In this document: piece after piece, positions 3,093-24,331 of the stretch
How positions within the stretch are numbered: the stretch's first letter is position 1
Layout: each line of letters starts with the position of its first letter
Source of the DNA: a virus
Taxonomy: Duplodnaviria; Heunggongvirae; Uroviricota; Caudoviricetes
Reading direction: 5' to 3' (one strand)
IMG/VR virus record: IMGVR_UViG_2908572912_000005
Coordinates: 1-25,862 of that record
DNA: 25,862 nucleotides
Position numbers and translations under genes: made by a program
The notes under the pieces: model-generated
Databases searched by the model: none
What the model was told of the DNA's origin: nothing
The model's input: the letters and a program-made list of their open reading frames with translations, nothing else

Positions 3093-3725
3093 TTAATTGC
3101 GCCTGGTTGCGATAATTAAGTGCGTCCGCCGCAGATTTCGCCGCGTTTGTTTCACTGGATTTAGCATTAGTTTCGCTGGCTTTAGCGTTGGTTTCGCTGC
3201 TCTTTGCTGCTGCCTCGCTAGTTTTCGCGTTGGTTTCTGATTTTTTGGCTGCTGTCGCGGAGTTTGCCGATGCAGTTTGTGAGTCTGCTGCCGCCTGTGC
3301 GCTGTTATTGATTCGTAATACGCCAGCATTTCAGAAAGGATCGCATCCAGTTTCCTTATCGGGAAATAGGCCTGGTCATAGTTGCGATCCACCCGAAACT
3401 GGAACTCGTGATAATCATCATCGAGCTGAATGAAGTATTTACACCCGACCAGTTTTGCCAGGTCGAAACAGGCATTACGGGCGTAAAAAATTGAGCGGCG
3501 ATCACCAAAATTATCGGCTTCGTCAAAACGACTGGCAATATCGGCTTTGGAAAATACCAGCACCTGTTCACCAAATTCAGCCATGTACTGATGCCGTGTC
3601 TTATCTTCATCATCAACAACGATAAAAATTTTCCCGGTATAGCCAGCACGACGCAACGTCCGGTAAGTCAGAACTTTGTCCGGTCGCCCGTGAGTCAGAA
3701 TAAAGGCGCAAAAATCATCACGCAT
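3093..3725 (-). CDS. Hypothetical protein (possible DxD-type fold) whose 3' end runs out of frame into the tail-fibre repeat region; probable deletion-junction fusion
   Basis: ATG at 3725, two nt after the upstream stop, preceded by a GGAGGAGGAGG Shine-Dalgarno-like run. Protein-like sequence to about residue 140 (...LDDDYHEF...AILSEMLAYYESI), then a basic R/Q/K-rich tail that is the stf repeat region read in another frame. Confidence 0.45.
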   Translation of the reverse strand: MRDDFCAFILTHGRPDKVLTYRTLRRAGYTGKIFIVVDDEDKTRHQYMAEFGEQVLVFSKADIASRFDEADNFGDRRSIFYARNACFDLAKLVGCKYFIQLDDDYHEFQFRVDRNYDQAYFPIRKLDAILSEMLAYYESITAHRRQQTHKLHRQTPRQQPKNQKPTRKLARQQQRAAKPTLKPAKLMLNPVKQTRRNLRRTHLIIATRRN

Positions 3726-4512
3726 ATTCCTCCTCCTCCTCCCCGCCATGCATGATCTCCACCATGCGCTGCGTCATTCGGACAAATCCATTTTCAATAG
3801 CCTGCTGATAATCAATGATCACCAGCGCCGACTCCTCGTAAAGGCACTGAATTTCAGCGGGGGCATGAGCGTAATAGTCCGCAATTCTGCTGAAATTAAA
3901 CACTGTGTGACGTTCTGCCGCACACAGGAGGAATTTCTCAATATCAGGATCAAGGGACGCCGAACGTATCCGGCTGATCAGCTCCTGAGTTTTCGTATCG
4001 TCGTACAGTTCACTGATATCCGGTTTACCGCCCGACGGCTCATAAACAGGCGTATCAATTTTCGTCGTATACGGCTCCTCCTCATTTCCTGTACCGGGCA
4101 AAACATCCGTCAACAGTTCATCAATTTCTGTCGGGATGAAGCCTGTCAGGGAGACATCAAAATCAGCATTGATTAGGTCCGACAGCTCCATCCGCAACAG
4201 ATCTTCATCCCAACCAGCATTCATCGGCAGGCGATTATCTGCCAGGCGGTACGCCTTTTTCTGCTCATCCGTCAGGCCAGACAGAACAATGACCGGAACA
4301 GAATCCATTTTGAGCATTTCAGCCGCCATAACACGACCGTGACCCGCAATAATTTCGCCCTTTTCGTCAATCAGCACCGGATTAGTCCAGCCGAATTGCT
4401 TAATACTTTCTACCAGTTGTGCCACCTGCTCAGTACTGTGCGTCCTGGCATTGTGCGCATACGGTGACAATTCTTGTAATGGGCGATAGACTATCTTTAA
4501 TTTCTCGCTCAT
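3718..4512 (-). CDS. ParB-like nuclease domain protein
   Basis: 264-aa ORF; N-terminal segment (...PYAHNARTHS...IIAGHGRVMAAEML...) resembles the ParB N-terminal domain; acidic EEEEE C-terminus. Occupies the position before the packaging module in many phages. Confidence 0.7.
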   Translation of the reverse strand: MSEKLKIVYRPLQELSPYAHNARTHSTEQVAQLVESIKQFGWTNPVLIDEKGEIIAGHGRVMAAEMLKMDSVPVIVLSGLTDEQKKAYRLADNRLPMNAGWDEDLLRMELSDLINADFDVSLTGFIPTEIDELLTDVLPGTGNEEEPYTTKIDTPVYEPSGGKPDISELYDDTKTQELISRIRSASLDPDIEKFLLCAAERHTVFNFSRIADYYAHAPAEIQCLYEESALVIIDYQQAIENGFVRMTQRMVEIMHGGEEEEEYA

Positions 4513-4649
4513 ACAGCCTTGCTTTATGAATAAAACGCACCCCAGCAGCCAGTGCTACTGGGGGCGGAGGTGTTGCTGGTAAAGTTAGGTATTGGATCAA
4601 TGAGTTAGTCAACATAATATTAAACTCACAATTATAAATCAGCCATATA

Positions 4650-6107
4650 TTAGGAGCGCCAAAAAAAACCTGAAAACAATATAATAACAGGATAAATTTC
4701 AAGGCGACCAAGAATCATAGCTATGCACATTAAATATTTTGCAATGTCATTAAGCACTCCGAATGACGATGCAGTAGCCCCAAAACCTAATCCCATATTA
4801 TTAATACATGCAGCCACTGTTGCAAATGATGTAAGAAAATCATATCCCATACCATTTAACACCAGTATAAAAAACACCGTGAAGAGAGTATAAAGAAAAA
4901 AGAAACTCCATACAGACCTCATTACACGATCTGTAACTATCTTCCCTCCTACATTTACACTTAACAACGCTCTGGGATGAGAAAGTTGATTTATCTCGTG
5001 TTTGCTTTGTTTGAAAAGTATAAGAAATCGAAGTGACTTAATTCCACCACAGGTTGAACCGATACATCCCCCAAAGAAACTTGACAACAGCAAAAACACT
5101 ATCGTGTGCGTGGGCCAGTTTGCATAATCCTGCGTAGCTAAACCATTATCAGTGAGCATGGAGCTGGCAAGAAAAAACGAATGAATAAAACTTCCATGCA
5201 AGTCATACATACCTATATGCCAGACCTGGAAAGAGGTAACAATGATCACCCCTAAGGCTATTAACAGAAAGAAACGAAGTTCAATATCTCTGATTAAAGG
5301 TTTTATCGTTTTTCTGCTAATAACAATATACCAAAGAGTGAAGTTGAAAGCCGATAGCAGGGAAAAAAAACCAGCCACCAGCTCAACCAAATAGTTATTA
5401 AAATATCCGATACTCTCGCTATGAGTTGAGAAACCACCAAGCGAAACTGTGGAAATCCCGTGACAAATAGCATCAAACAAAGACATTCCTGCAAGTCTAT
5501 AACAGACAATACAAGCAATACCTAATAAAGAATAAGTTATCCACAGTGTCCGTGACGTATCGGCCAGGCGGGGAGTGAGTTTGTCATCCTTAAATGGCCC
5601 CGGCATTTCTGACTGATAAAGCTTTGCACCACCAATACCCAATAATGGCAATACAGCAACCGCCAGAACAATAACTCCTAAACCACCTATAAAATTTAAC
5701 TGTGACCGATAGTACAAATATGCCCGAGGTAATGAACTAACATCATCAATTACAGTTGCTCCTGTTGTTGTTATTCCAGAAACCCCTTCAAACAGAGCAT
5801 CAATGAACGTTAAATTAAGTTCTGAGTCAATCCATAAAGGGAATGCACTAATAACAGAAAACAAAATCCAAAACATTACAATTATAATAAACCCATCACG
5901 GGTACGTAATTGAATGCCAGATTTCTTAGTTGTATACCACGCTCCGCCACCAATGCAAAAAAATATAACGAAAGTTATAAAGAAAACGAACAGGCTTTTT
6001 TCTTTATAAAACAATGCTACAACCATTGGTGGCAACATTGAAAGACTATAGAGCCAAACCAGGAACCCACACATATGAGTAACAACTCTTACATGAGATG
6101 TATTCAT
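4650..6107 (-). CDS. trkG: Trk-system potassium uptake protein TrkG (prophage cargo)
   Basis: Polytopic membrane protein starting MNTSHVRVVTHMCGFLVWLYSL..., matching my recollection of Rac TrkG (485 aa from the ATG at 6107; the ORF track start at 6125 is a TTG). AT-rich flanks. Confidence 0.9.
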   Translation of the reverse strand: MNTSHVRVVTHMCGFLVWLYSLSMLPPMVVALFYKEKSLFVFFITFVIFFCIGGGAWYTTKKSGIQLRTRDGFIIIVMFWILFSVISAFPLWIDSELNLTFIDALFEGVSGITTTGATVIDDVSSLPRAYLYYRSQLNFIGGLGVIVLAVAVLPLLGIGGAKLYQSEMPGPFKDDKLTPRLADTSRTLWITYSLLGIACIVCYRLAGMSLFDAICHGISTVSLGGFSTHSESIGYFNNYLVELVAGFFSLLSAFNFTLWYIVISRKTIKPLIRDIELRFFLLIALGVIIVTSFQVWHIGMYDLHGSFIHSFFLASSMLTDNGLATQDYANWPTHTIVFLLLSSFFGGCIGSTCGGIKSLRFLILFKQSKHEINQLSHPRALLSVNVGGKIVTDRVMRSVWSFFFLYTLFTVFFILVLNGMGYDFLTSFATVAACINNMGLGFGATASSFGVLNDIAKYLMCIAMILGRLEIYPVIILFSGFFWRS

Positions 6108-6244
6108 ATCTAAATATTCTTTCAATTATAACCACCTTGCTGCAATATTATGATTATACTGTATAAAATTTAACTCCTCTTAGATCTTACTTCACTGTTC
6201 CTTATGAAACAATCATCAAAATGAATCATATTGTAGTTAAGATT

Positions 6245-9208: not shown

Positions 9209-9495
9209 AAATAACCTTCCTTTCTCCAGATTTCTTGTGTGCGAAAAACACCTTCTGCATGCATCAGGCGTAATTCTTCTTTGGTGTAATCGCTGGTTTT
9301 TACCCGCCCGTCGATTAAATCGTGGCATGAGCTACAGGCAATCGCTGCCTGCATATCGTGTGGTTTTGTCGCTGTTCCGCACGTCCCCGCCAGCCTGTAA
9401 TGCGCCAGCACAGAGGTTTCGGGATTGTGATTGCAGTAGCCAGGGATTCTGATCTGGCACATCTGGCCTTTAGCCGCTTTACGTAAATTCACCAT
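9205..9495 (-). CDS. YbcO-like (DUF1364) putative nuclease with Cys-rich metal-binding motifs
   Basis: 96 aa; ...CQIRIPGYCNHNPETSVLAHYRLAGTCGTATKPHD...IACSSCHD... resembles E. coli prophage YbcO as I recall it. Confidence 0.7.
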   Translation of the reverse strand: MVNLRKAAKGQMCQIRIPGYCNHNPETSVLAHYRLAGTCGTATKPHDMQAAIACSSCHDLIDGRVKTSDYTKEELRLMHAEGVFRTQEIWRKEGYL

Positions 9496-10093
9496 TACGC
9501 AAACTCCAGTAGTTGTGCGGCCACATTTTCAACTTCCTCCTGAGAGGAGAATTTACGGAACAGAATCCAGTTCCACAGCACATTCAGAACAGATTTATAA
9601 ACCTGCTGAAACTCGGTTTCGTCCATATTCGCAAACGCGATGGATTTCGCCCTGCGCCCACGGCTACCGTCCGGATAAATATGCTCGGTGTAAAATCCGG
9701 CCTGAATGGTTACCCACTCGCGGAAAGCCTCAAACGACTTTAGCAATGCCGTATCCCGAGTTCTGCGTGTCGCAACTGTATTTAGATATTGCTCTGCGGC
9801 ATCACTCAGGGCTGGTGTGTGTTCCCGACCAACTGATTCGCACAAGTAATCCACGAAACCAGACAGCAGTTCTCGTTCGCGAGGTGTGATCGCCCCACCG
9901 ACCGGAGTCCAGTAATCGAATCCCAGTTGCAGGAGTTTGAAAAACGCTTGTGGAATGCGTAGTTACGCACACGCTTAAAGTCTGCGTGTATCCACTCACC
10001 TATTTTGATTTGATGCAGAAAATCGCAACTCTCCGGCGTCGCCGGGAGAAGTAAACCAGAAGAGGTTTGTTTGACCAGTTGTATATGCGCCAT
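9495..10093 (-). pseudogene. Nin-region phage gene split into two overlapping reading frames by a frameshift at an A5/T5 homopolymer
   Basis: The frame from the ATG at 10093 (MAHIQLVKQTSS...HKRF) stops at 9806; a second frame is open from ~9962 to 9495 (...FFKLLQLGFDYWTPVGG...LLEFA). Both read through the AAAAA run at 9939-9943; one nt of indel there would give a single ~200-aa protein. Confidence 0.5.
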
Positions 10094-10455: not shown

Positions 10456-10470
10456 AACACACCCACAAAT

Positions 10471-10500
10471 AAATCAAACCCGCTACAGCGGGTTTGATTT
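10471..10500. terminator. Bidirectional intrinsic terminator (13-bp perfect stem, 4-nt loop)
   Basis: AAATCAAACCCGC-TACA-GCGGGTTTGATTT; GC-rich stem core with U-rich distal arm on either strand; lies between the convergent S8 peptidase gene and the small peptide ORF. Confidence 0.6.
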
Positions 10501-10509
10501 ATATAGTTG

Positions 10510-12774
10510 TTATACGGAAACTGGCACACGAGCAGGCAATGGATAGTGAGCCCAGTTATTAGCATTTAAAGCTCTTACGCCATCAGCATAAACTTGTGTG
10601 TTTCCATCTAATGATTTTAAAGTTACTACAATAGTTACAGGTAAAGGCTCCATTAAGGCCGGTTCATTCGCTCTCAACGTTGTTTTAGCCTGAAGAGCCC
10701 AGTTACCCGAAGTAATTCCTTTATTAAATGCCTTGCGATGAATTTTTACTGGTGACCACTTTCCACCATGCTCAATTTGAGCTCTCTCATATCCAGATTG
10801 ACCGTTTTCTCCTTCCATAGGCACTTTTCCTTTTATAGTATTATTCTCAATTAAGCCAAAACTTAGCTCTACGTTCGCGCGAACATATTCACTGCCGGCA
10901 TTAGGGTTCAGTGGTGGTGCATATGCAGCAGTAATTACAATCTCACCTTTAAATTTTCCATTTTGAATAAGTGCCGATGGTATGGGATAGTTTTCCTTTC
11001 TCCACCTCATCCCAGGAACCAAGAATGTTTGGAAAATCAGAGTAAACCTATCATCACTATCATATAAGGTCTCAATAACTTCATTAGGAATTCCCGCTCC
11101 CAAATAGCGTCTTTCACTTGGCGAGTAATCAGGAGAAGATAATTGAGCGGAATGAATTAATAATGCTTTAATCAATGATGGTGAAACATTAAAGTCTGAA
11201 TTAGTGGCTATTCTCTGCCATGTATGCGCAGCTAAACTTGCCACAATTGGAGCAGCAAAACTAGTACCAAAATTAGAGCAAAGCCTATTATCTGGCCCTA
11301 CGACCTTTAAACTGCTTGCTCCTACATTCCAAGGTCTATGAACCCCACCGCCAGCATGGATTATATCTGGCTTTGGAGTAAATACAGGCCCAGGGCCACG
11401 ACGAGTATATGGTGTCGGTGTTCCAATTTCACTTAAAGCATCATTAGCTTCCATATGAGAAACTGAACCAACTGTTAGTGCTCGGACTGACTCTCCAGGA
11501 GAGGAAATTAAATCAGCACCTCCAAGCGGTTCAGGATTTGGCCATGTACGTATAGGTTCATCTACATAATTACCTGCAGCAACTACAAACAAAATACCAA
11601 ATTTATCGCTGAGCCGATCTAACTCCATCGCAAAATCACTAAACGTCTGCTCATTGCATGGTCCGCCTCCCAAAGACAAATTCCAGACTTTTATATCTGG
11701 TCTTTTATTTACAGCATCTGCTAGCCTCAGAATTAAATCTGATATATAAGATCCATTTTCATCTAAGGCACAAACATCATGGATTTTAGATTTTGTATCA
11801 GGAATCCATGGATGATTGTCATTTAAAAAATGAGCGCCTGATATCAATGAAGACACCATAGTCCCATGTTCATAACTCGTATCAGGAGGAATTACGTATG
11901 TTTCCCTACTCACTACCCAAGGAGTAATTGTTGCCGCGATGGGGCTTACCCCAGTGTCAAATACAGCAACAATGGGTAATTCTTCTGATGGTACGGGAAA
12001 GCTATTTGTTTCAATGCCAACAGAATCACTTACACTAACCGGGAATGCTGAATATTTTGGTTCTGGAATTAACGTTCTTATACCCGGGTAATCAATGAGA
12101 ATGTCTAATATATATCTATCATTTGGGGATAAATCCATTATCCTTAATAAGGGAAGACCACATTTTTGTCTAATCTCATCATATTTAACTCCGTGTTGTT
12201 CTAATATAGAAATAACGTTTTCATAGTTGTTGTAAGTTGCATCTTCACCTGTGTACTCAAATAGTCGTACAAGGATGTTTGATGATTCAAACAAACCATC
12301 AGTGCCTCCTGGAACCTTCCTATTCTCATCCCAAGGTTCAATGCGCTCAATCGCGCTTAGATTAGCCAAAATCGCTTTAATATTCCGATGTAAAATGACT
12401 GACTCTAATACGTCAAAACAGCCGGCATGAGCAGCAACCAACATTTCATCTATTTTGGCATGACCGGCATTTTGCAATCCAGCCTCTTGAGCAATTTTGT
12501 TCGGCCTATGCGTTTTGGCTATTCCCTGGTCTCTTAATTTGAAAACCAAAGTACCCAAGCTTCCAGGGTACTCTGAAAGTTTGGATTCTAAATAATGTTT
12601 ACTGGTTGTTAAATTTCTTACTAGCCCTTGTCTATATTCGGCTGTTACATCAACCAATACCTTTGCCCCACCGCCAGCGTTTACTATTGCACCCAAGTCA
12701 CTACTGGAAAAAGGGATTCTTAACATTGGGTTTGTAACTTTTGCGTTACTAAACTGTGTACCCCTTCTGCTCAT
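10510..12774 (-). CDS. Subtilisin-like serine peptidase (S8 family) with large N- and C-terminal extensions
   Basis: 754 aa; catalytic triad motifs in canonical D-H-S order: VAVFDTGV (Asp), YEHGTMVSS (His), GTSFAAPIVA (Ser), plus AAGN oxyanion-region motif. No obvious signal peptide. Start overlaps the upstream ATPase gene by 26 nt. Confidence 0.9.
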   Translation of the reverse strand: MSRRGTQFSNAKVTNPMLRIPFSSSDLGAIVNAGGGAKVLVDVTAEYRQGLVRNLTTSKHYLESKLSEYPGSLGTLVFKLRDQGIAKTHRPNKIAQEAGLQNAGHAKIDEMLVAAHAGCFDVLESVILHRNIKAILANLSAIERIEPWDENRKVPGGTDGLFESSNILVRLFEYTGEDATYNNYENVISILEQHGVKYDEIRQKCGLPLLRIMDLSPNDRYILDILIDYPGIRTLIPEPKYSAFPVSVSDSVGIETNSFPVPSEELPIVAVFDTGVSPIAATITPWVVSRETYVIPPDTSYEHGTMVSSLISGAHFLNDNHPWIPDTKSKIHDVCALDENGSYISDLILRLADAVNKRPDIKVWNLSLGGGPCNEQTFSDFAMELDRLSDKFGILFVVAAGNYVDEPIRTWPNPEPLGGADLISSPGESVRALTVGSVSHMEANDALSEIGTPTPYTRRGPGPVFTPKPDIIHAGGGVHRPWNVGASSLKVVGPDNRLCSNFGTSFAAPIVASLAAHTWQRIATNSDFNVSPSLIKALLIHSAQLSSPDYSPSERRYLGAGIPNEVIETLYDSDDRFTLIFQTFLVPGMRWRKENYPIPSALIQNGKFKGEIVITAAYAPPLNPNAGSEYVRANVELSFGLIENNTIKGKVPMEGENGQSGYERAQIEHGGKWSPVKIHRKAFNKGITSGNWALQAKTTLRANEPALMEPLPVTIVVTLKSLDGNTQVYADGVRALNANNWAHYPLPARVPVSV

Positions 12775-13903
12775 ATGCTCCTGACTCCTTCAGAATGTTT
12801 GAAATTACTCTTGATGTAAGTTTGTACAAATTAGCAAGAACTCTGATAGAAAATAATTTTTTATCTTTAGAACGTAACCAACGAATTTCATCTTCGTAAG
12901 TGCTTAAATTTACACCTTCCATAAGCGATTGAGCAAGATACAAACGCCTATACAATTTATGGTGATTTATCACACTTGCACCTTCAATAACTGCATCCCT
13001 ACGTGCATCCAAGCTCACCTGTTCAATTATTGCTCCGGATAATCCTTCCGATTTTCTTGATAAATCACTTAAATCTAGATCGCTACATATCATATTCTTT
13101 AAACGATTTTTCCAAATTAACTCTCTCTGATGTATGTCAGGCAGAGGCATTGGAATTCTGAAGCTAAATCGCCTCCAGATTGCAGGATCCAGAAGTTGCT
13201 CATGGTTAGTTGAGGCAATAATTACCGTATCCTCTGATGCCGCATCCATATTCTGCAATAGTGAAATGACAACTCGCTGAAGCTCACCTATATCTCTCTC
13301 ATTACCTCTTGCTCCAGCTAAAGCATCAAATTCGTCTAAAAAAAGCACTGATGGCCTCTGCATTACATAATCGAAAACCTGTCTAAGATTTTTGCTGGTT
13401 TGTCCCAATAAACTACTAATCAAAGTATCGCAACGCACTGTAAGAAGTGGAAAATCTAAGCGGGTAGCGATGTACTTAGATAACATAGTCTTACCTGTTC
13501 CTGGCTTTCCATACACGAGCATACGACTCGGCAATGCTGCATCAGCTTTAACAAACTCATCATAACGTTGAACATTAGTGATAAACTCTTCAACACGGGT
13601 ACTGATTGCTGCAGGCAGAAAAATCTCTGAACTGTCTAATTTAGGATAACTGACATCAACAGTGTTGAGTCGACTATCAATATCTACCGGTAATGAGCCC
13701 AGAGATATCCCACCTCCAGCCCTTTGAGCTCCTGCCAACGCCTGGGGAGCTCTAAGCAACCTTTCTCTTATCATTCTGGCTTGCTTGACCTCCCCTTTTT
13801 GTTCGAGCTTATCTGCCAGCAACCCAGCATAATTACTAGCCATCGAAGCATTTGCCTTTGTTGCACCTTCAATGATTTTTAACACTTCTGATAAATAATC
13901 CAT
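12749..13903 (-). CDS. AAA+ family ATPase
   Basis: 384 aa; Walker A GKPGTGKT, Walker B VLFLDEFDAL, sensor-1 region IIASTNHEQLLDPAIWRRF; ~130-aa N-terminal extension; GGGAG ribosome-binding site. Confidence 0.9.
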   Translation of the reverse strand: MDYLSEVLKIIEGATKANASMASNYAGLLADKLEQKGEVKQARMIRERLLRAPQALAGAQRAGGGISLGSLPVDIDSRLNTVDVSYPKLDSSEIFLPAAISTRVEEFITNVQRYDEFVKADAALPSRMLVYGKPGTGKTMLSKYIATRLDFPLLTVRCDTLISSLLGQTSKNLRQVFDYVMQRPSVLFLDEFDALAGARGNERDIGELQRVVISLLQNMDAASEDTVIIASTNHEQLLDPAIWRRFSFRIPMPLPDIHQRELIWKNRLKNMICSDLDLSDLSRKSEGLSGAIIEQVSLDARRDAVIEGASVINHHKLYRRLYLAQSLMEGVNLSTYEDEIRWLRSKDKKLFSIRVLANLYKLTSRVISNILKESGAYEQKGYTV

Positions 13904-14096
13904 TCAACACTCCCACAACAAAAAGCCACAGCAATCAAAAAATGAGCACGCAGAATCAAAATGCTCTCTAATCGTAACGCATTTTGAGATTTTTGATACG
14001 TTTTTTTGGGATTATGTAACGCCAAATGGTCATTTTGTGTCAGAAAAATAAATCTTAGTACCGAGAATATGTAGCTTCCATCCTTCATCGTTCTAT

Positions 14097-14528
14097 TCAT
14101 CCCTGATCTCCAAGCCTCTCTCGAAAACCATTCTGATAAAACGCCAGCACACGCTGCATAACTTCGCTCTTCCGGCACTCGCGACAGATTATGTTTAGGC
14201 GACTGTCGTAGCGACGTATTTCTCCGTCAGGTAATGACCAGATAAGGTCCGGATCAACCACAACCGGTTTCTTCAGCTTTGCCCTAGATAGTTTTTTGCG
14301 GGCATTTTGCCAGTCCTTACGAGCCTGTTCAGACGGGAATAACCCGTAACCAGAGTTGTATACATCGCCACTGGCAACCAGCTCTCTGGCGAGAACGCTC
14401 ATCAGATATCTTGTCGCACCTGTCTTGGCTTCCAGTTGCCGTAACGTCTCGCGCCCACTCCGGCGTACTAGTTCAACAACCTGCCCTTTAATTTTTTCCC
14501 GCTCTTCTTGTGTAAATACTTTTGCCAT
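14097..14528 (-). CDS. Hypothetical protein (143 aa), basic, possible DNA-binding fold
   Basis: ATG at 14528 with GGAGG Shine-Dalgarno at 5-nt spacing (the ORF track start at 14543 is a TTG); no motif I can assign confidently. Confidence 0.55.
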   Translation of the reverse strand: MAKVFTQEEREKIKGQVVELVRRSGRETLRQLEAKTGATRYLMSVLARELVASGDVYNSGYGLFPSEQARKDWQNARKKLSRAKLKKPVVVDPDLIWSLPDGEIRRYDSRLNIICRECRKSEVMQRVLAFYQNGFRERLGDQG

Positions 14529-14543
14529 AAGCGCCTCCGGCAA

Positions 14544-15305
14544 TCACTTTTCCGATACAACACGGCGGGAAGAATCAGTAATCTGTCGAACAATATCCCG
14601 GTGCTTGTTCAGCTCCCGCAGCGCGGCGCAGACTCGCTCCCACTTCTGGACATGATTTTTCGCCCGACGCAGTTCACGGTTTGCCATATGCAGCGATGGT
14701 AAAATCAGGTTATCCGCTTGCGTTTCAGTAAACGATGGCAACGACTGCACAATGTCCGCCACAGTTTCTGTTTTAATATCTTCCTGTGTTGCAGCTTCCT
14801 GTACTGGTAACGCAACACCGGCTAGCTGAGGAAAGGCTTTACCATCTGTTTCCGCTACCGATGCAGCTTTCGGCTCTGCTGGTAAATTACCGCCCGGCAT
14901 GCAGTAACGAAATTTACCGTTCTGATTAACGCGAATCAGACGAGCTTTGCTGATTGCCATTGCCAGCGTTGAAGCCACTTTGCGGGATGTGGTACCGAAC
15001 AACGTAGCCAGTTCATCCGCAGTTAGTGGACCACGTTGTTCAATCGTCGCAGTTAAATCGCTCTCTGAAATTTTCGCGACTGTTGCCGTGGTAGTTTCTT
15101 CCGGCAGTTCTGCCGGCGCTGGCTGTTCCTGCTGAACGTTGTTATCAGCCACACGCCAGGTGTACGCGCTTTTATCAACGAAACCAGCCTTTTTCAGTTC
15201 CCATAGTTCGTTCAGCACTTCTTCACGGCTGATATCAAGTCGCGCAGCAAGTTCTATGGATGTGGCTTTTCCCATTGCTTTCAGTGTGTCAAAAACAGTC
15301 TCCAT
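14544..15305 (-). CDS. Hypothetical phage protein, YdaW/DUF1627-like by position and N-terminal winged-helix-like segment
   Basis: ATG at 15305 ([43 protein letters not shown]...), GGAGA ribosome-binding site; directly downstream of the DnaC-like gene as in Rac-type prophages. Confidence 0.55.
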
Positions 15306-15327: not shown

Positions 15328-16074
15328 TTACTTCGCAATTCCTGGCTGGACGACATTCGGACGCCAGCTCTCCCAGTTAAAATTCACCCATCGCCCGCCG
15401 TTCATGGTCATGCGATCCATAATCCTCTCGCCGAGCAATGTTTTCATGGCCTCATAATTCAGGTTTGTCAGCATCCCCACGCTGCGCATCGACGCTGTCC
15501 GGCGATCAACAATCTGGTGCAGCACCACCTGCTCGTTTTTTGTCTCGCGCTGAATGCCAATTTCATCAAGAACCAGCAGATCCACTTGGCACAGTTCCCG
15601 CAAAAATTTTTCGCCTGATTGCCCGTCGTCATAGCTGGCGTGTAGGGCACTCATGACATCAGCCACGGTAACCACAATCACTGTCTGGCCATCTTTCAGC
15701 AGGCGATTCCCGATAGCCGCCGCCAGATGGTTTTTTCCGGTACCAGGTTTTCCGCTGAACGCAAAATTTGTACACCCGGTCATCAGTTCATCAGCGATGG
15801 ATTTCGCCTGACTCAACGCGTATCGCTGCCCTTCGTTCTGCACCTGGTAATTCGAAAACGAGCATTTGCGGTGCAATGGCTGGATGCCAGAGCGATTCAG
15901 AATTTTTTCCACCCGCAACTGACGATTCTGACGGTTGATCTCCTCACAACGTTTCTGGCCTTCGGAAAGTTGCCACTCGCGCCACTCCGCTACCGTTTTG
16001 AATGGGGCGGTTACATGTGGCGGGGCCAGTCTGCGGATACGTTCAAGAATGCCGCCTGCCGCAATATTTTTCAT
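15328..16074 (-). CDS. ydaV: DnaC/IstB-like helicase-loader ATPase (YdaV-like)
   Basis: 248 aa; Walker [16 protein letters not shown], Walker B LLVLDEIG; replication-module position. Confidence 0.85.
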
Positions 16075-23934: not shown

Positions 23935-24129
23935 ATGAGATATGACAATGTTAAACCATGTCCATTTTGTGGTTGTCCATCAGTAACGGTGAAAGCCATT
24001 TCAGGATATTACCGAGCGAAGTGTAACGGATGCGAATCCCGAACCGGTTATGGTGGAAGTGAAAAAGAAGCACTCGAAAGATGGAATAAACGAACCACTG
24101 GAAATAATAATGGAGGTGTTCATGTATAA
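23935..24129 (+). CDS. ralR: Restriction alleviation protein / endodeoxyribonuclease toxin RalR (Lar)
   Basis: 64 aa MRYDNVKPCPFCGCPSVTVKAISGYYRAKCNGCESRTGYGG... Confidence 0.85.
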   Translation: MRYDNVKPCPFCGCPSVTVKAISGYYRAKCNGCESRTGYGGSEKEALERWNKRTTGNNNGGVHV

Positions 24130-24331
24130 AATTACCGCCACTATTGAAAAGGAAGGTGGCACTCCTACTAACTGGACAAGATATTCAAAATCTAAACTAA
24201 CGAAATCAGAATGCGAAAAAATGCTCTCAGGTAAAAAAGAAGCAGGCGTTTCCAGAGAGCAGAAAGTAAAACTGATAAATTTTAATTGCGAGAAACTTCA
24301 GTCCTCGAGAATTGCATTGTATTCAAATTAA
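24122..24331 (+). CDS. ydaC: YdaC-like protein (69 aa)
   Basis: ATG at 24122 (MYKITATIEKEGGTPTNWTRYSK...); overlaps the ralR 3' end. Confidence 0.7.
   Translation: MYKITATIEKEGGTPTNWTRYSKSKLTKSECEKMLSGKKEAGVSREQKVKLINFNCEKLQSSRIALYSN

Follow-up and report, generated by a model that had tools for sequence, protein, structure and literature searches.

The locus examined here raises the question of whether an ATPase gene and the protease gene that follows it are expressed and act together with the genes lying upstream, including a possible small protein of 73 aa, or whether they form a unit of their own. The window, i.e. the whole stretch of 25,862 nt that was analysed, is a Rac-type prophage of Escherichia coli and contains int, RalA, recT, recE, sieB, repressor, ydaT, ydaU-like and ydaV-like. 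All the features described below are on the minus strand. The ydaV-like gene is separated by 22 nt from a gene (14544-15305) that codes for a protein of 253 aa of family DUF1627 (Pfam PF07789, E 3e-97; phrog_630), with an N-terminal winged-helix-like region and with a PGAP annotation at the same place. After 15 nt there is a second gene (14097-14528, 143 aa, pI 9.9) for a YdaW-type DUF977 protein (Pfam PF06163, E 2e-28; phrog_142, E 6e-46), a family that bears the PHROG label "Ren-like exclusion protein". A spacer of 193 nt then leads to the ATPase gene. The G+C content is 49-53% in the upstream prophage genes, 36% in the spacer and 40% in the ATPase-protease pair.

The first gene of the pair, ietA (iteA; 12749-13903), is preceded by a Shine-Dalgarno sequence, GGGAG, read directly from the sequence at 13910-13914, and codes for an AAA+ ATPase of 384 aa, the antitoxin-type partner. 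Its product matches PADLOC profile PDLC02196 (E 8.9e-143) over profile positions 1-374 of 374 and Pfam AAA (E 2.6e-30), and residues 78-310 gave p97/Cdc48 D2 matches in a PDB profile search. The next gene on this strand, ietS (iteS; 10510-12774), overlaps ietA by 26 nt and codes for an S8 subtilase of 754 aa, the toxin/effector (Pfam Peptidase_S8; PADLOC PDLC02197, E 1.2e-301). Identical loci carry the PGAP gene names iteA and iteS, and by these profile matches the pair is the already known two-gene IetAS (NCBI "IteA/IteS") defence/toxin-antitoxin system. A 15-bp hairpin with a T-rich tail (10469-10502) begins 8 nt past the ietS stop codon and is likely an intrinsic terminator that closes the cassette; a hairpin of the form AAACCCGC...GCGGGTTT(T) is also found 3′ of ietS in loci L002, L068, L071 and L019.

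Of 5426 E. coli genomes, 4230 matched the DUF1627-DUF977 part of the query, and the match continued into IetAS in only 77 of these 4230. The two genes always follow ydaU/ydaV, whatever cargo lies downstream, and in other prophages the slot after them is occupied by QueH, HokD, Doc or small ORFs. Reciprocally, IetAS is preceded elsewhere by PerC-like, lambda-P-like, ParB-HTH or antiterminator-Q genes, by tRNA-Thr or by non-phage DNA. As judged from this distribution, DUF1627 and DUF977 are part of the Rac-like prophage backbone and lie outside the defence system, and IetAS is independent of them.

The boundary between both parts is a mosaic junction (14097-14130), in which the last ca. 10 codons of the DUF977 gene (ending here in NGFRERLGDQG and the stop) differ in every prophage context. 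In an alignment with three prophages lacking IetAS, backbone homology ends at ...AFYQ, and the megablast matches of genomes without IetAS end at query positions 515-535, corresponding to 14114-14134 of the window. The ATGA shared by the DUF977 stop codon (TGA, 14099-14097) and the start of the 73-codon frame (ATG, 14100-14098) is, from the position of these alignment ends, a by-product of that junction.

A preliminary description of this DNA had suggested that the upstream genes may belong to the same operon as the ATPase and that the 143-aa protein could regulate the pair or act as its sensor. The genes are indeed co-directional and we detected no terminator between DUF977 and ietA, so that transcripts from the early promoter of the prophage may read through into the pair; the idea of a common operon holds only in this weak sense. 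Their being dedicated regulators or sensors of IetAS, in a single functional operon, would agree with the shared strand, with the helix-turn-helix-like regions of both proteins, with DUF977 being the upstream neighbour in 77 out of 77 E. coli genomes carrying this ietA allele, and with the presence of a DUF977-family gene upstream of the Citrobacter locus as well. Nevertheless, identity among the 77 IetAS copies is 99% or higher and extends over the junction, pointing to a single insertion followed by spread, and around 98% of the 4230 genomes with the gene pair do not have IetAS. Moreover, both the boxes described below and IetAS are kept without DUF977 and DUF1627 in loci L019, L020, L068, L070, L071, L073, L074 and L075, and in the window the junction is marked by the 193-nt gap and by a fall in G+C from 50% to 36-40%. 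We thus regard a dedicated regulatory role of these genes as highly improbable, and the proposal for the 143-aa protein found no support.

The gap between DUF977 and ietA is spanned by the 73-codon frame (13879-14100), whose product begins MNRTMKDGSY and whose stop codon (TAA, 13881-13879) falls 25 nt inside ietA, which has its ATG at 13903. The gene positions, the short gaps, the ATGA junction and the extent of this frame were all confirmed as first described. The description had also put forward the 73-aa product as a third component of the system, translationally coupled on both sides, and several features would fit a real small protein coupled to DUF977 and ietA. Besides its two overlaps, the frame has a GGAG 7 nt 5′ of its ATG, and a single forward frame remained open over the whole 193-nt AT-rich spacer in only 1.8% of mononucleotide shuffles. 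It is also predicted by gene callers: it matches positions 1-73 of phrog_9743, a profile of 73 positions, the one phage record matched labels it a "kinase fragment", and its protein cluster occurs on at least 1000 contigs. Additionally, a 46-aa ORF of locus L002 uses this frame too, its stop overlapping the start of ietA as TAATG.

However, the frame is not maintained in nature. A search of 5.8 billion proteins returned seven clusters, all of them near-identical E. coli copies or truncated or deleted variants, with no homologues beyond these, and phrog_9743 likewise contains such sequences only; among the variants there are frameshifted products of 43 aa (in 41 or more contigs) and of 65 aa (in 7), as well as in-frame deletions. 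In loci L060 to L067, 1-nt indels break the frame and leave DUF977 (143 aa), IetA (384 aa) and IetS (754 aa) at full length, the outcome that the preliminary description had named as telling against the small protein; the three frame-breaking alleles (A7 to A6, A7 to A8 and CCC to CC) are different and independent. In diverged loci it is either broken or absent. Homology with the Citrobacter locus, whose IetA is 91% identical, begins ca. 130 nt before ietA, and the start and first ca. 25 codons of the ORF are missing; the start is absent in L002 as well. The DNA that holds its start and first third is specific to the junction and has no counterpart in other IetAS loci. In-frame stops occur inside the conserved block described below in L019 and just past it in L068, and the 60-aa ORF of L070 reads this block in another frame. 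Scanning genome contigs for relatives gave a single match, a Citrobacter MAG, and there was no match to the spacer in the plasmid collection.

Nor did the sequence of the frame show clear signs of coding. Since the 77 copies of the spacer from complete E. coli genomes are all at least 99% identical, dN/dS could not be used within this species, and pN/pS was calculated from diverged loci of other collections. Between the window and L002 the frame has a pN of 0.230 and a pS of 0.192 (pN/pS ca. 1.2), with only 33 gap-free codons and hence a small sample, against a pN/pS of 0.094 for ietA in the same pair; no selection at the protein level was seen. G+C at the three codon positions is flat (0.36/0.32/0.34), with no codon periodicity, and the codon log-odds score (0.045) is below that of 92% of windows from real genes. 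The frame had no match in Pfam or PADLOC and no PGAP annotation. That it stays open across the spacer exceeds chance expectation only mildly, and there are 17 other ATG-initiated ORFs of at least 73 aa in the window outside the frame of any supported gene. Finally, IetAS constructs with two genes are active according to the literature. A third, translationally coupled defence component is accordingly so improbable that we give it hardly any weight; because it shows neither conservation nor selection at the protein level, the 73-codon frame is open by accident and is not a conserved gene. With a usable GGAG and its mildly unusual openness, it may be translated incidentally.

The alternative offered in the preliminary description, in which 13904-14096 serves the ATPase operon as an AT-rich promoter region, fared better, being backed by a conserved block that resembles a promoter. 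This block consists of an A-tract, GTATCA, 17 nt and TACGAT, set among GCGTWAC-type boxes that recur every 21 nt, and is kept down to 63% IetA identity, including in unrelated genomic contexts. Box 1 (GCGTTAC, 14016-14022) is at -119 from the ATG of ietA, and homology with the Citrobacter IetAS cassette starts here. It is followed by CCC and a run of seven A (14001-14010), an A-tract resembling an UP element, in which the 1-nt changes in length that disrupt the 73-codon frame are found; an A-tract upstream of the -35-like box is kept in most loci. Box 2 (ACGTATC, 13994-14001), at -98, is a copy of GCGTWAC with two mismatches and contains the -35-like GTATCA (13999-13994). Box 3 (GCGTTAC, 13971-13980), at -77, contains the -10-like TACGAT (13976-13971), 17 nt after GTATCA. 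The copies of GTAACGC 42 nt apart make up repeat family D4. Further repeats (families I2 and D3) are situated around and downstream of the -10-like box (13933-13987): a perfect 9-bp inverted repeat, TCAAAATGC/GCATTTTGA, at 13987-13979 and 13964-13956, and two copies of TTTTGATT 21 nt apart (13961-13954 and 13940-13933); in loci of 86-91% identity these repeats are retained only in part.

The sequences CGTATCAA, at box 2, and CGTTACGAT, at box 3, are invariant in five loci with 77-100% IetA identity, in which the synonymous sites of ietA differ by 0.52-0.80. Box 3 conforms to GCG(T/A/C)TAC(G/A)AT in 10 of the 11 displayed loci (63-100% IetA identity, unrelated contexts), and in L020 it reads CCGTTACGAT; the geometry of -35-like box, 17 nt and -10-like box is common to ten loci, down to 63% IetA identity. 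Exact GCGTWAC boxes occur 13 times in the 11 loci, against 0.27 expected. Three such boxes, allowing one mismatch, are in phase and exactly 21 nt apart in L002 and L070, and the window and L071 have two plus a weaker third one in phase (ACGTATC in the window, TCGCATC in L071). Since the loci share ancestry, part of this conservation is inherited and not independently maintained.

What the block does was less evident from its hexamers, which agree with the sigma-70 consensus at three of six (GTATCA) and four of six (TACGAT) positions. A sigma-70 consensus scan of 13700-14700 called no promoter at its threshold, nor did it at the homologous place in L070 and L075, whereas the homologous block of L072 (GTAACA-17-TACAAT) was called as a sigma-70-like promoter. 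In L073 and L030 a CGT(T/C)ACGA box is located directly before the Shine-Dalgarno sequence and not at the -10 position, which suggests that the boxes are more than promoter hexamers. Comparison of the block with consensus sequences for FliA, sigma-E, sigma-54, IHF, CpxR and LexA yielded no convincing fit. We also considered a riboswitch or structured leader, which was rejected as the predicted RNA fold of the spacer was no better than that of shuffled sequences (z = +0.53), and a search against Rfam found no family, the best match being a snoRNA at the level of chance (E 0.15). Likewise, an antitermination site of the qut/nut type was considered, as two relatives follow Q genes, and was discarded on account of the block's retention in non-phage contexts.

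The block could be regulatory without being a constitutive sigma-70 promoter, i.e. an activator-dependent or alternative-sigma promoter, or an array for a host or phage factor, in which case a signal would switch ietAS on and there would be no autorepression by IetA. The poor -35-like element and the failures of the consensus scan are consistent with this, as are the boxes found outside promoter positions; the invariant non-consensus bases in both boxes suggest sequence-specific recognition beyond RNA polymerase, and for sgiAT of SGI1 expression from its own promoter was too low according to the literature, its authors proposing positive activation. Against it, the 17-nt spacing, the upstream A-tract and the -10 sequence TAC(G/A)AT fit sigma-70, and one natural version of the block, that of L072, passes the scan. 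Besides, IetAS cassettes of Escherichia, Citrobacter, Kosakonia/Phytobacter, Aeromonas and metagenomic hosts have retained the block, in unrelated contexts too, which favours recognition by a factor borne by the cassette, such as IetA, or by the universal RNA polymerase. We consider this reading unlikely. The block is most likely a weak promoter of the cassette itself together with an operator array. Promoter activity, operator function and the nature of the binding protein are what we infer; the identity of the genes, the neutral evolution and lack of conservation of the 73-codon frame, the conservation and phasing of the boxes and the independence of IetAS from DUF977 and DUF1627 are what the analysis showed.

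IetA itself possibly binds the block. In an AlphaFold model, the C-terminus of IetA has three short helices (residues 336-346, 353-359 and 364-371; pLDDT ca. 90). No helix-turn-helix match was found in this region with Pfam, the best hit of a PDB profile search was not significant (E ≥ 0.03), and Foldseek returned nothing at E ≤ 0.001, with a list rich in helix-turn-helix proteins at E 2-6. It is conceivable, if somewhat doubtful, that IetA is a DNA-binding autoregulator whose conserved C-terminal three-helix module recognizes the 21-nt-phased GCGTWAC boxes overlapping the ietAS promoter. If so, cassette transcription would be tied to the antitoxin or sensing state of IetA, which might act as an oligomer, with a box at every second helical turn; this operator architecture would be unusual for a toxin-antitoxin or defence system, and the length polymorphism of the A-run between boxes 1 and 2 would be a natural tuning knob.

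Taken together, we are rather confident that the locus joins two separate units, a Rac-type replication block and a self-contained IetAS cassette with its own control region, and that the 73-codon frame is accidental. The replication (early-right) block of a Rac-type lambdoid prophage ends with DUF1627 and DUF977, and the variable cargo slot right after DUF977 is filled here by the IetA/IetS abortive-infection/toxin-antitoxin cassette, comprising an upstream control region, ietA, ietS and the terminator hairpin. The 193-nt spacer would be this control region, with an A-tract, a weak sigma-70-type promoter and boxes phased every 21 nt. Having its own promoter would allow the cassette to be expressed in a lysogen while the prophage early promoter is repressed. 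The simplest reading of the phased boxes is that they are operators for a repressor; judging by type II toxin-antitoxin operons, this is probably IetA, whose putative helix-turn-helix-like module at the C-terminus would contact them. The 73-codon frame begins in DNA specific to the junction and extends across the AT-rich control region.

The finding is thus largely an ordinary one, a control region next to ordinary backbone genes. Its first use is as a clean-up: it keeps out of models of IetAS a spurious third component that is predicted by some gene callers and labelled as a kinase fragment in one phage record, and it indicates that adjacency of DUF977 and DUF1627 to the cassette is by itself no ground for scoring them as defence-associated. 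The positive result is a defined and conserved control region for IetAS, roughly at 14030-13930 of the window, comprising the A-tract, the -35 and -10 boxes and the GCGTWAC repeats phased every 21 nt. It sets the true upstream limit of the mobile cassette and offers a concrete target for work on how this ATPase-protease system, still poorly understood, comes to be expressed and is kept silent in lysogens.

In its gene content the cassette is an IetAS system, which we take to be originally the IetA-IetS toxin-antitoxin pair of pTiC58; the original paper is reportedly that of Yamamoto in 2009, and Gao and co-workers are said to have described it in 2020 as the anti-phage system IetAS / IteAS. 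As in IetAS, a gene for an AAA+ ATPase is followed by an overlapping gene for an S8 subtilase, with full-length PADLOC matches to both, and nothing essential differs, this copy being situated in the cargo slot of a Rac-type prophage, after DUF977. In the literature IetAS is treated as a two-gene Abi/toxin-antitoxin system that is functional when cloned on its own, and constructs of the two genes from ECOR52 and from B. cereus are active; SgiAT from SGI1 is a relative, and toxin-antitoxin behaviour is described for both. The organization of the cassette, two genes behind a promoter region of their own, is like that of sgiAT as drawn and of IetAS as cloned for defence assays. Phased GCGTWAC boxes upstream of ietA are not mentioned in the IetAS literature that we found, the original 2009 and 2020 descriptions aside.

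A third component does exist in ietHAS (Liu-DS4), a three-gene variant of IetAS with an upstream SNF2 helicase that is essential (NAR 2026, PMC13069673). The likeness to the third component proposed here is that in ietHAS a gene upstream of ietA is essential; in contrast, the upstream genes in the window, DUF977 and DUF1627, are prophage backbone genes without a helicase domain, and the 73-codon frame is not conserved.

In autoregulated type II toxin-antitoxin operons, the antitoxin binds repeated operators that overlap its own promoter. The cassette resembles these operons in that the antitoxin-type gene is first and the toxin gene follows, and in that the boxes overlap the -35 and -10 elements; in more distant relatives of IetA, operator-like repeats occur at the same place, with GTGAAAAAATCTTCAC repeats phased every 20 nt in L051 and AAGCGTT/AACGCTT in L052. 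It differs in that the antitoxin is an AAA+ ATPase of 384 aa and not a small DNA-binding protein, its DNA-binding domain being a prediction of low significance. Lambdoid phages carry "morons", or cargo slots, between the replication genes and the nin/Q region, and the cassette is a typical example of these: a self-contained unit of promoter, genes and terminator, with a lower G+C content than its surroundings, in a slot whose cargo differs among prophages.

The window is occupied by a Rac-type lambdoid prophage, hosted by E. coli, whose gene order is integrase, RalA sRNA, RecT, RecE, SieB and repressor, then YdaT, YdaU-like, YdaV-like, DUF1627, DUF977 and the ATPase and protease and, after this cassette, DUF1367 (split), YbcO, a Q-like DUF1133 protein, Rz, TrkG and the tail fibre. 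The ATPase gene (13903–12749) overlaps the protease gene (12774–10510) by 26 nt, and their products match IetA (PADLOC, E 9e-143) and IetS (PADLOC, E 1e-301), named 'anti-phage ATPase IteA' and 'S8 family anti-phage peptidase IteS' by PGAP; by every sequence criterion tested, the pair is the known IetAS/IteAS system. On the minus strand, like ietA and ietS, a 22-nt gap separates a ydaV/DnaC-like gene ending at 15328 from the DUF1627 gene (15305–14544, 253 aa), which lies 15 nt before the DUF977 gene (14528–14097, coding for a basic protein of 143 aa, pI 9.9), and 193 nt separate the latter from ietA. Direct re-reading of the sequence confirmed the coordinates and sequence facts of the preliminary description.

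A DUF1187 ORF on the opposite strand (24050–24331) overlaps the RalA sRNA (24128–24306, minus strand; Rfam RF02694, 225 bits), which is the antitoxin in the type I RalR/RalA system of the Rac prophage. Downstream of the cassette, the DUF1367 gene (9495–10093, minus strand) is intact with 199 aa in related loci and split here into two ORFs (9806–10093, profile positions 1–51, and 9495–9854, positions 81–198), and is thus probably a frameshift pseudogene. Late-region cargo (3093–6125, minus strand) comprises a TrkH-family K+ transporter resembling Rac trkG, a protein with a ParB_N domain and, adjoining the tail-fibre gene, a homologue of the TET-associated glycosyltransferase (TAGT). The ydaV-like gene (248 aa) and recE (866 aa) are intact ORFs, unlike in the closest complete genome, NZ_CP053284 (locus L001), where both are annotated as pseudogenes, the ydaV-like replication gene (L001 7729–8475) with an internal stop.

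An ATG at 14100, sharing an ATGA with the TGA of DUF977, opens a 73-codon frame that stops at 13881–13879, 25 nt inside ietA, and that had been proposed as a translationally coupled third component of the system. Its incidental translation is possible, because a GGAG is present 7 nt upstream of the ATG. The frame departs only mildly from chance: in 1.8 % of shuffles one frame remained open over the full 193-nt spacer (13904–14096), and the window has 17 other ATG-ORFs of 73 aa or more that are not genic. The frame belongs to no family in Pfam or PADLOC and is not annotated by PGAP; it matches end to end the 73-position profile PHROG 9743, and a single phage record contains it, labelled 'kinase (fragment)'. 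Relatives among 5.8 billion proteins were E. coli copies only, with variant forms of 43 aa (at least 41 contigs) and 65 aa (7 contigs) and two forms with in-frame deletions. The truncated forms arise by three different 1-nt indels in a CCC-A7 run (A6, CC and A8), and every locus with an indel keeps intact DUF977 (143 aa), IetA (384 aa) and IetS (754 aa), so that the frame is broken while the flanking genes are not. Homology of the Citrobacter locus (IetA 91 %) to the window starts only ca. 130 nt before ietA, and that locus therefore lacks the frame's start and its first third; over the 33 gap-free codons shared, pN was 0.230 and pS 0.192, against a pN/pS ratio of 0.094 for ietA in the same pair. 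Stops interrupt the frame in two other compared loci, within a conserved block of the spacer after SYQ (L019) or just past it after RLS (L068), and a called 60-aa ORF in L070 (2313–2495; IetA 81 %) fills the spacer, ending 5 nt before ietA, and reads that block in another frame. Coding potential was also low, with flat GC1–3 values (0.36/0.32/0.34, without codon-position structure; no real gene has a GC1 below 0.49) and codon log-odds below 92 % of real-gene windows. The 73-aa frame is thus not a real gene and bears no sign of a selected protein, and a third component is further disfavoured by the defence activity of IetAS with both genes cloned alone. Open frames recur in the T-rich leader upstream of ietA, without protein conservation.

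It had also been suggested that the upstream genes share an operon with ietAS, the 143-aa protein being its regulator or sensor. The DUF977/DUF1627 part of a junction-spanning query matched in 4230 of the 5426 complete E. coli genomes, and only 77 matches extend into ietA. The spacer is at least 99 % identical among these 77 genomes, to which the E. coli copies of the window's ietA allele are confined; ietAS is a single insertion in them, spread together with the prophage. In prophages devoid of IetAS the DUF1627–DUF977 pair likewise follows ydaU/ydaV, and the slot after DUF977 holds other cargo, for example QueH, HokD, Doc toxin or small ORFs. Backbone homology ends within the last ca. 10 DUF977 codons, at ...AFYQ (about 14128), and beyond that point each context compared has its own C-terminal tail; therefore, the ATGA overlap is a by-product of a mosaic junction. 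Both the spacer (36 % G+C) and ietAS (40 %) are lower in G+C than the prophage genes (49–53 %). The upstream neighbours of IetAS relatives are quite different, among them a PerC-like regulator, a lambda-P-like gene, a ParB-HTH gene, antiterminator Q, a PrlF/YhaV pair with a transposase, a tRNA-Thr island and non-phage chromosome. DUF1627 and DUF977 are, then, prophage backbone genes outside the IetAS system, and a regulatory role of the 143-aa protein is not supported. What stands of the operon is its co-directional arrangement: a scan detected no terminator between DUF977 and ietA, so read-through into ietAS from the early promoter at induction is possible, amounting to co-transcription and not to shared function.

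A non-coding block upstream of ietA was better conserved than ietA synonymous sites in the alignment of regions upstream of diverged cassettes: CGTATCAA and CGTTACGAT were invariant in five loci with 77–100 % IetA identity and ietA pS of 0.52–0.80. We anchored eleven loci (63–100 % identity) on the second of these two boxes, from phage and non-phage contexts in Escherichia, Citrobacter, Kosakonia/Phytobacter, Aeromonas and metagenomes. Ten share a layout, situated 31–73 nt before the ietA start, of an A-tract, a −35-like G(T/C)(A/T)(A/T)CA, a 17-nt spacer and a −10-like TAC(G/A)AT preceded by GCG(T/A/C); the exception is L073, with the anchoring box just 5′ of the ribosome-binding site. In the window these are an A7 run (14007–14001), GTATCA (13999–13994) and TACGAT (13976–13971), followed by the ietA Shine-Dalgarno GGGAG (13914–13910), all on the minus strand. 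The spacer matched no Rfam family, and the stability of its RNA was not unusual.

The boxes of the window, GCGTTAC (−119 from the ietA ATG), ACGTATC (−98) and GCGTTAC (−77), form a direct repeat phased in exact 21-nt steps. Three in-phase boxes with at most one mismatch to GCGTWAC occur in both L002, the Citrobacter IetAS locus, and L070, two plus a weaker third (TCGCATC) in L071, and two in L072; exact GCGTWAC was found 13 times in the eleven 200-nt upstream regions, versus 0.27 expected from shuffles. In the window spacer the −10 box is also flanked by a perfect 9-bp inverted repeat, and TTTTGATT occurs twice, 21 nt apart. The C3/A7 homopolymer (14001–14010, minus strand CCCAAAAAAA) varies naturally in length in the compared loci L060–L067 (A6, A8, CC), which leaves boxes 1 and 2 spaced by 20 or 22 nt instead of 21 and, if the boxes are operators, could tune regulation. 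Distant IetA relatives (37–44 % identity) carry other operator-like repeats directly upstream of ietA: 20-nt-phased GTGAAAAAATCTTCAC palindromes preceding TATACT (L051 2579–2656, also L054) and an AAGCGTT-N15-AACGCTT inverted repeat (L052 2893–2921).

From these sequence features, 14030–13904 is best read as the cassette's own putative promoter and operator region, in agreement with the earlier alternative of a promoter region in 13904–14096. With such a promoter, ietAS could be expressed in the lysogen without relying on the early promoter, which is repressed there. The window hexamers are weak (3/6 for −35, 4/6 for −10) and a consensus scan did not call them; in the homologous block it called a promoter in L072 only, and not in L070 or L075. 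An activator-dependent promoter is a live alternative, favoured by the related SGI1 sgiAT operon, whose own promoter was too weak to give a phenotype. Binding of a sequence-specific protein is suggested by three features: bases that are invariant without matching the consensus, additional boxes in phase and, in L073 and L030, boxes that adjoin the ribosome-binding site. The block accompanies the cassette through different hosts and contexts, which makes IetA the simplest candidate; IetA would bind the boxes in its own control region and autoregulate the cassette, as in autoregulated toxin-antitoxin operons, although we consider this rather doubtful. The IetA C-terminus (residues ca. 336–371, window 12749–12860) is a confident three-helix module in AlphaFold (336–346, 353–359 and 364–371; pLDDT ca. 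90), whose predicted helices resemble a helix-turn-helix, with FS(I/L)R.LA.LY..S.R conserved across 44 homologues. Neither profile search nor Foldseek gave a significant match for this module (the Foldseek list was rich in HTH DNA-binding domains, but with E 2–6), and for this reason DNA binding by IetA is put forward tentatively.

At the other end, a strong, perfect 15-bp hairpin with a T-rich tail (10502–10469) starts 8 nt past the ietS stop, and its stem core AAACCCGC/GCGGGTTT recurs 3′ of ietS in L002, L068, L071 and L019 with different flanks. Given the conserved upstream block and this hairpin, the cassette appears to be a promoter-genes-terminator unit from about 14030 to about 10455.

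Overall, the locus is ordinary, with one modest lead. We found no description of a phased-box control region in the accessible IetAS literature; by analogy, it would be the kind of element expected of a toxin-antitoxin-like operon. In that literature, IetAS consists of two genes and acts by abortive infection, and was originally reported as a toxin-antitoxin pair in which the protease is the toxin and the ATPase the antitoxin. The sole three-gene variant described there, ietHAS, adds an SNF2 helicase (PMC13069673), which the window locus lacks. The arrangement in the window is that of a typical lambdoid 'moron' sitting in a cargo slot.
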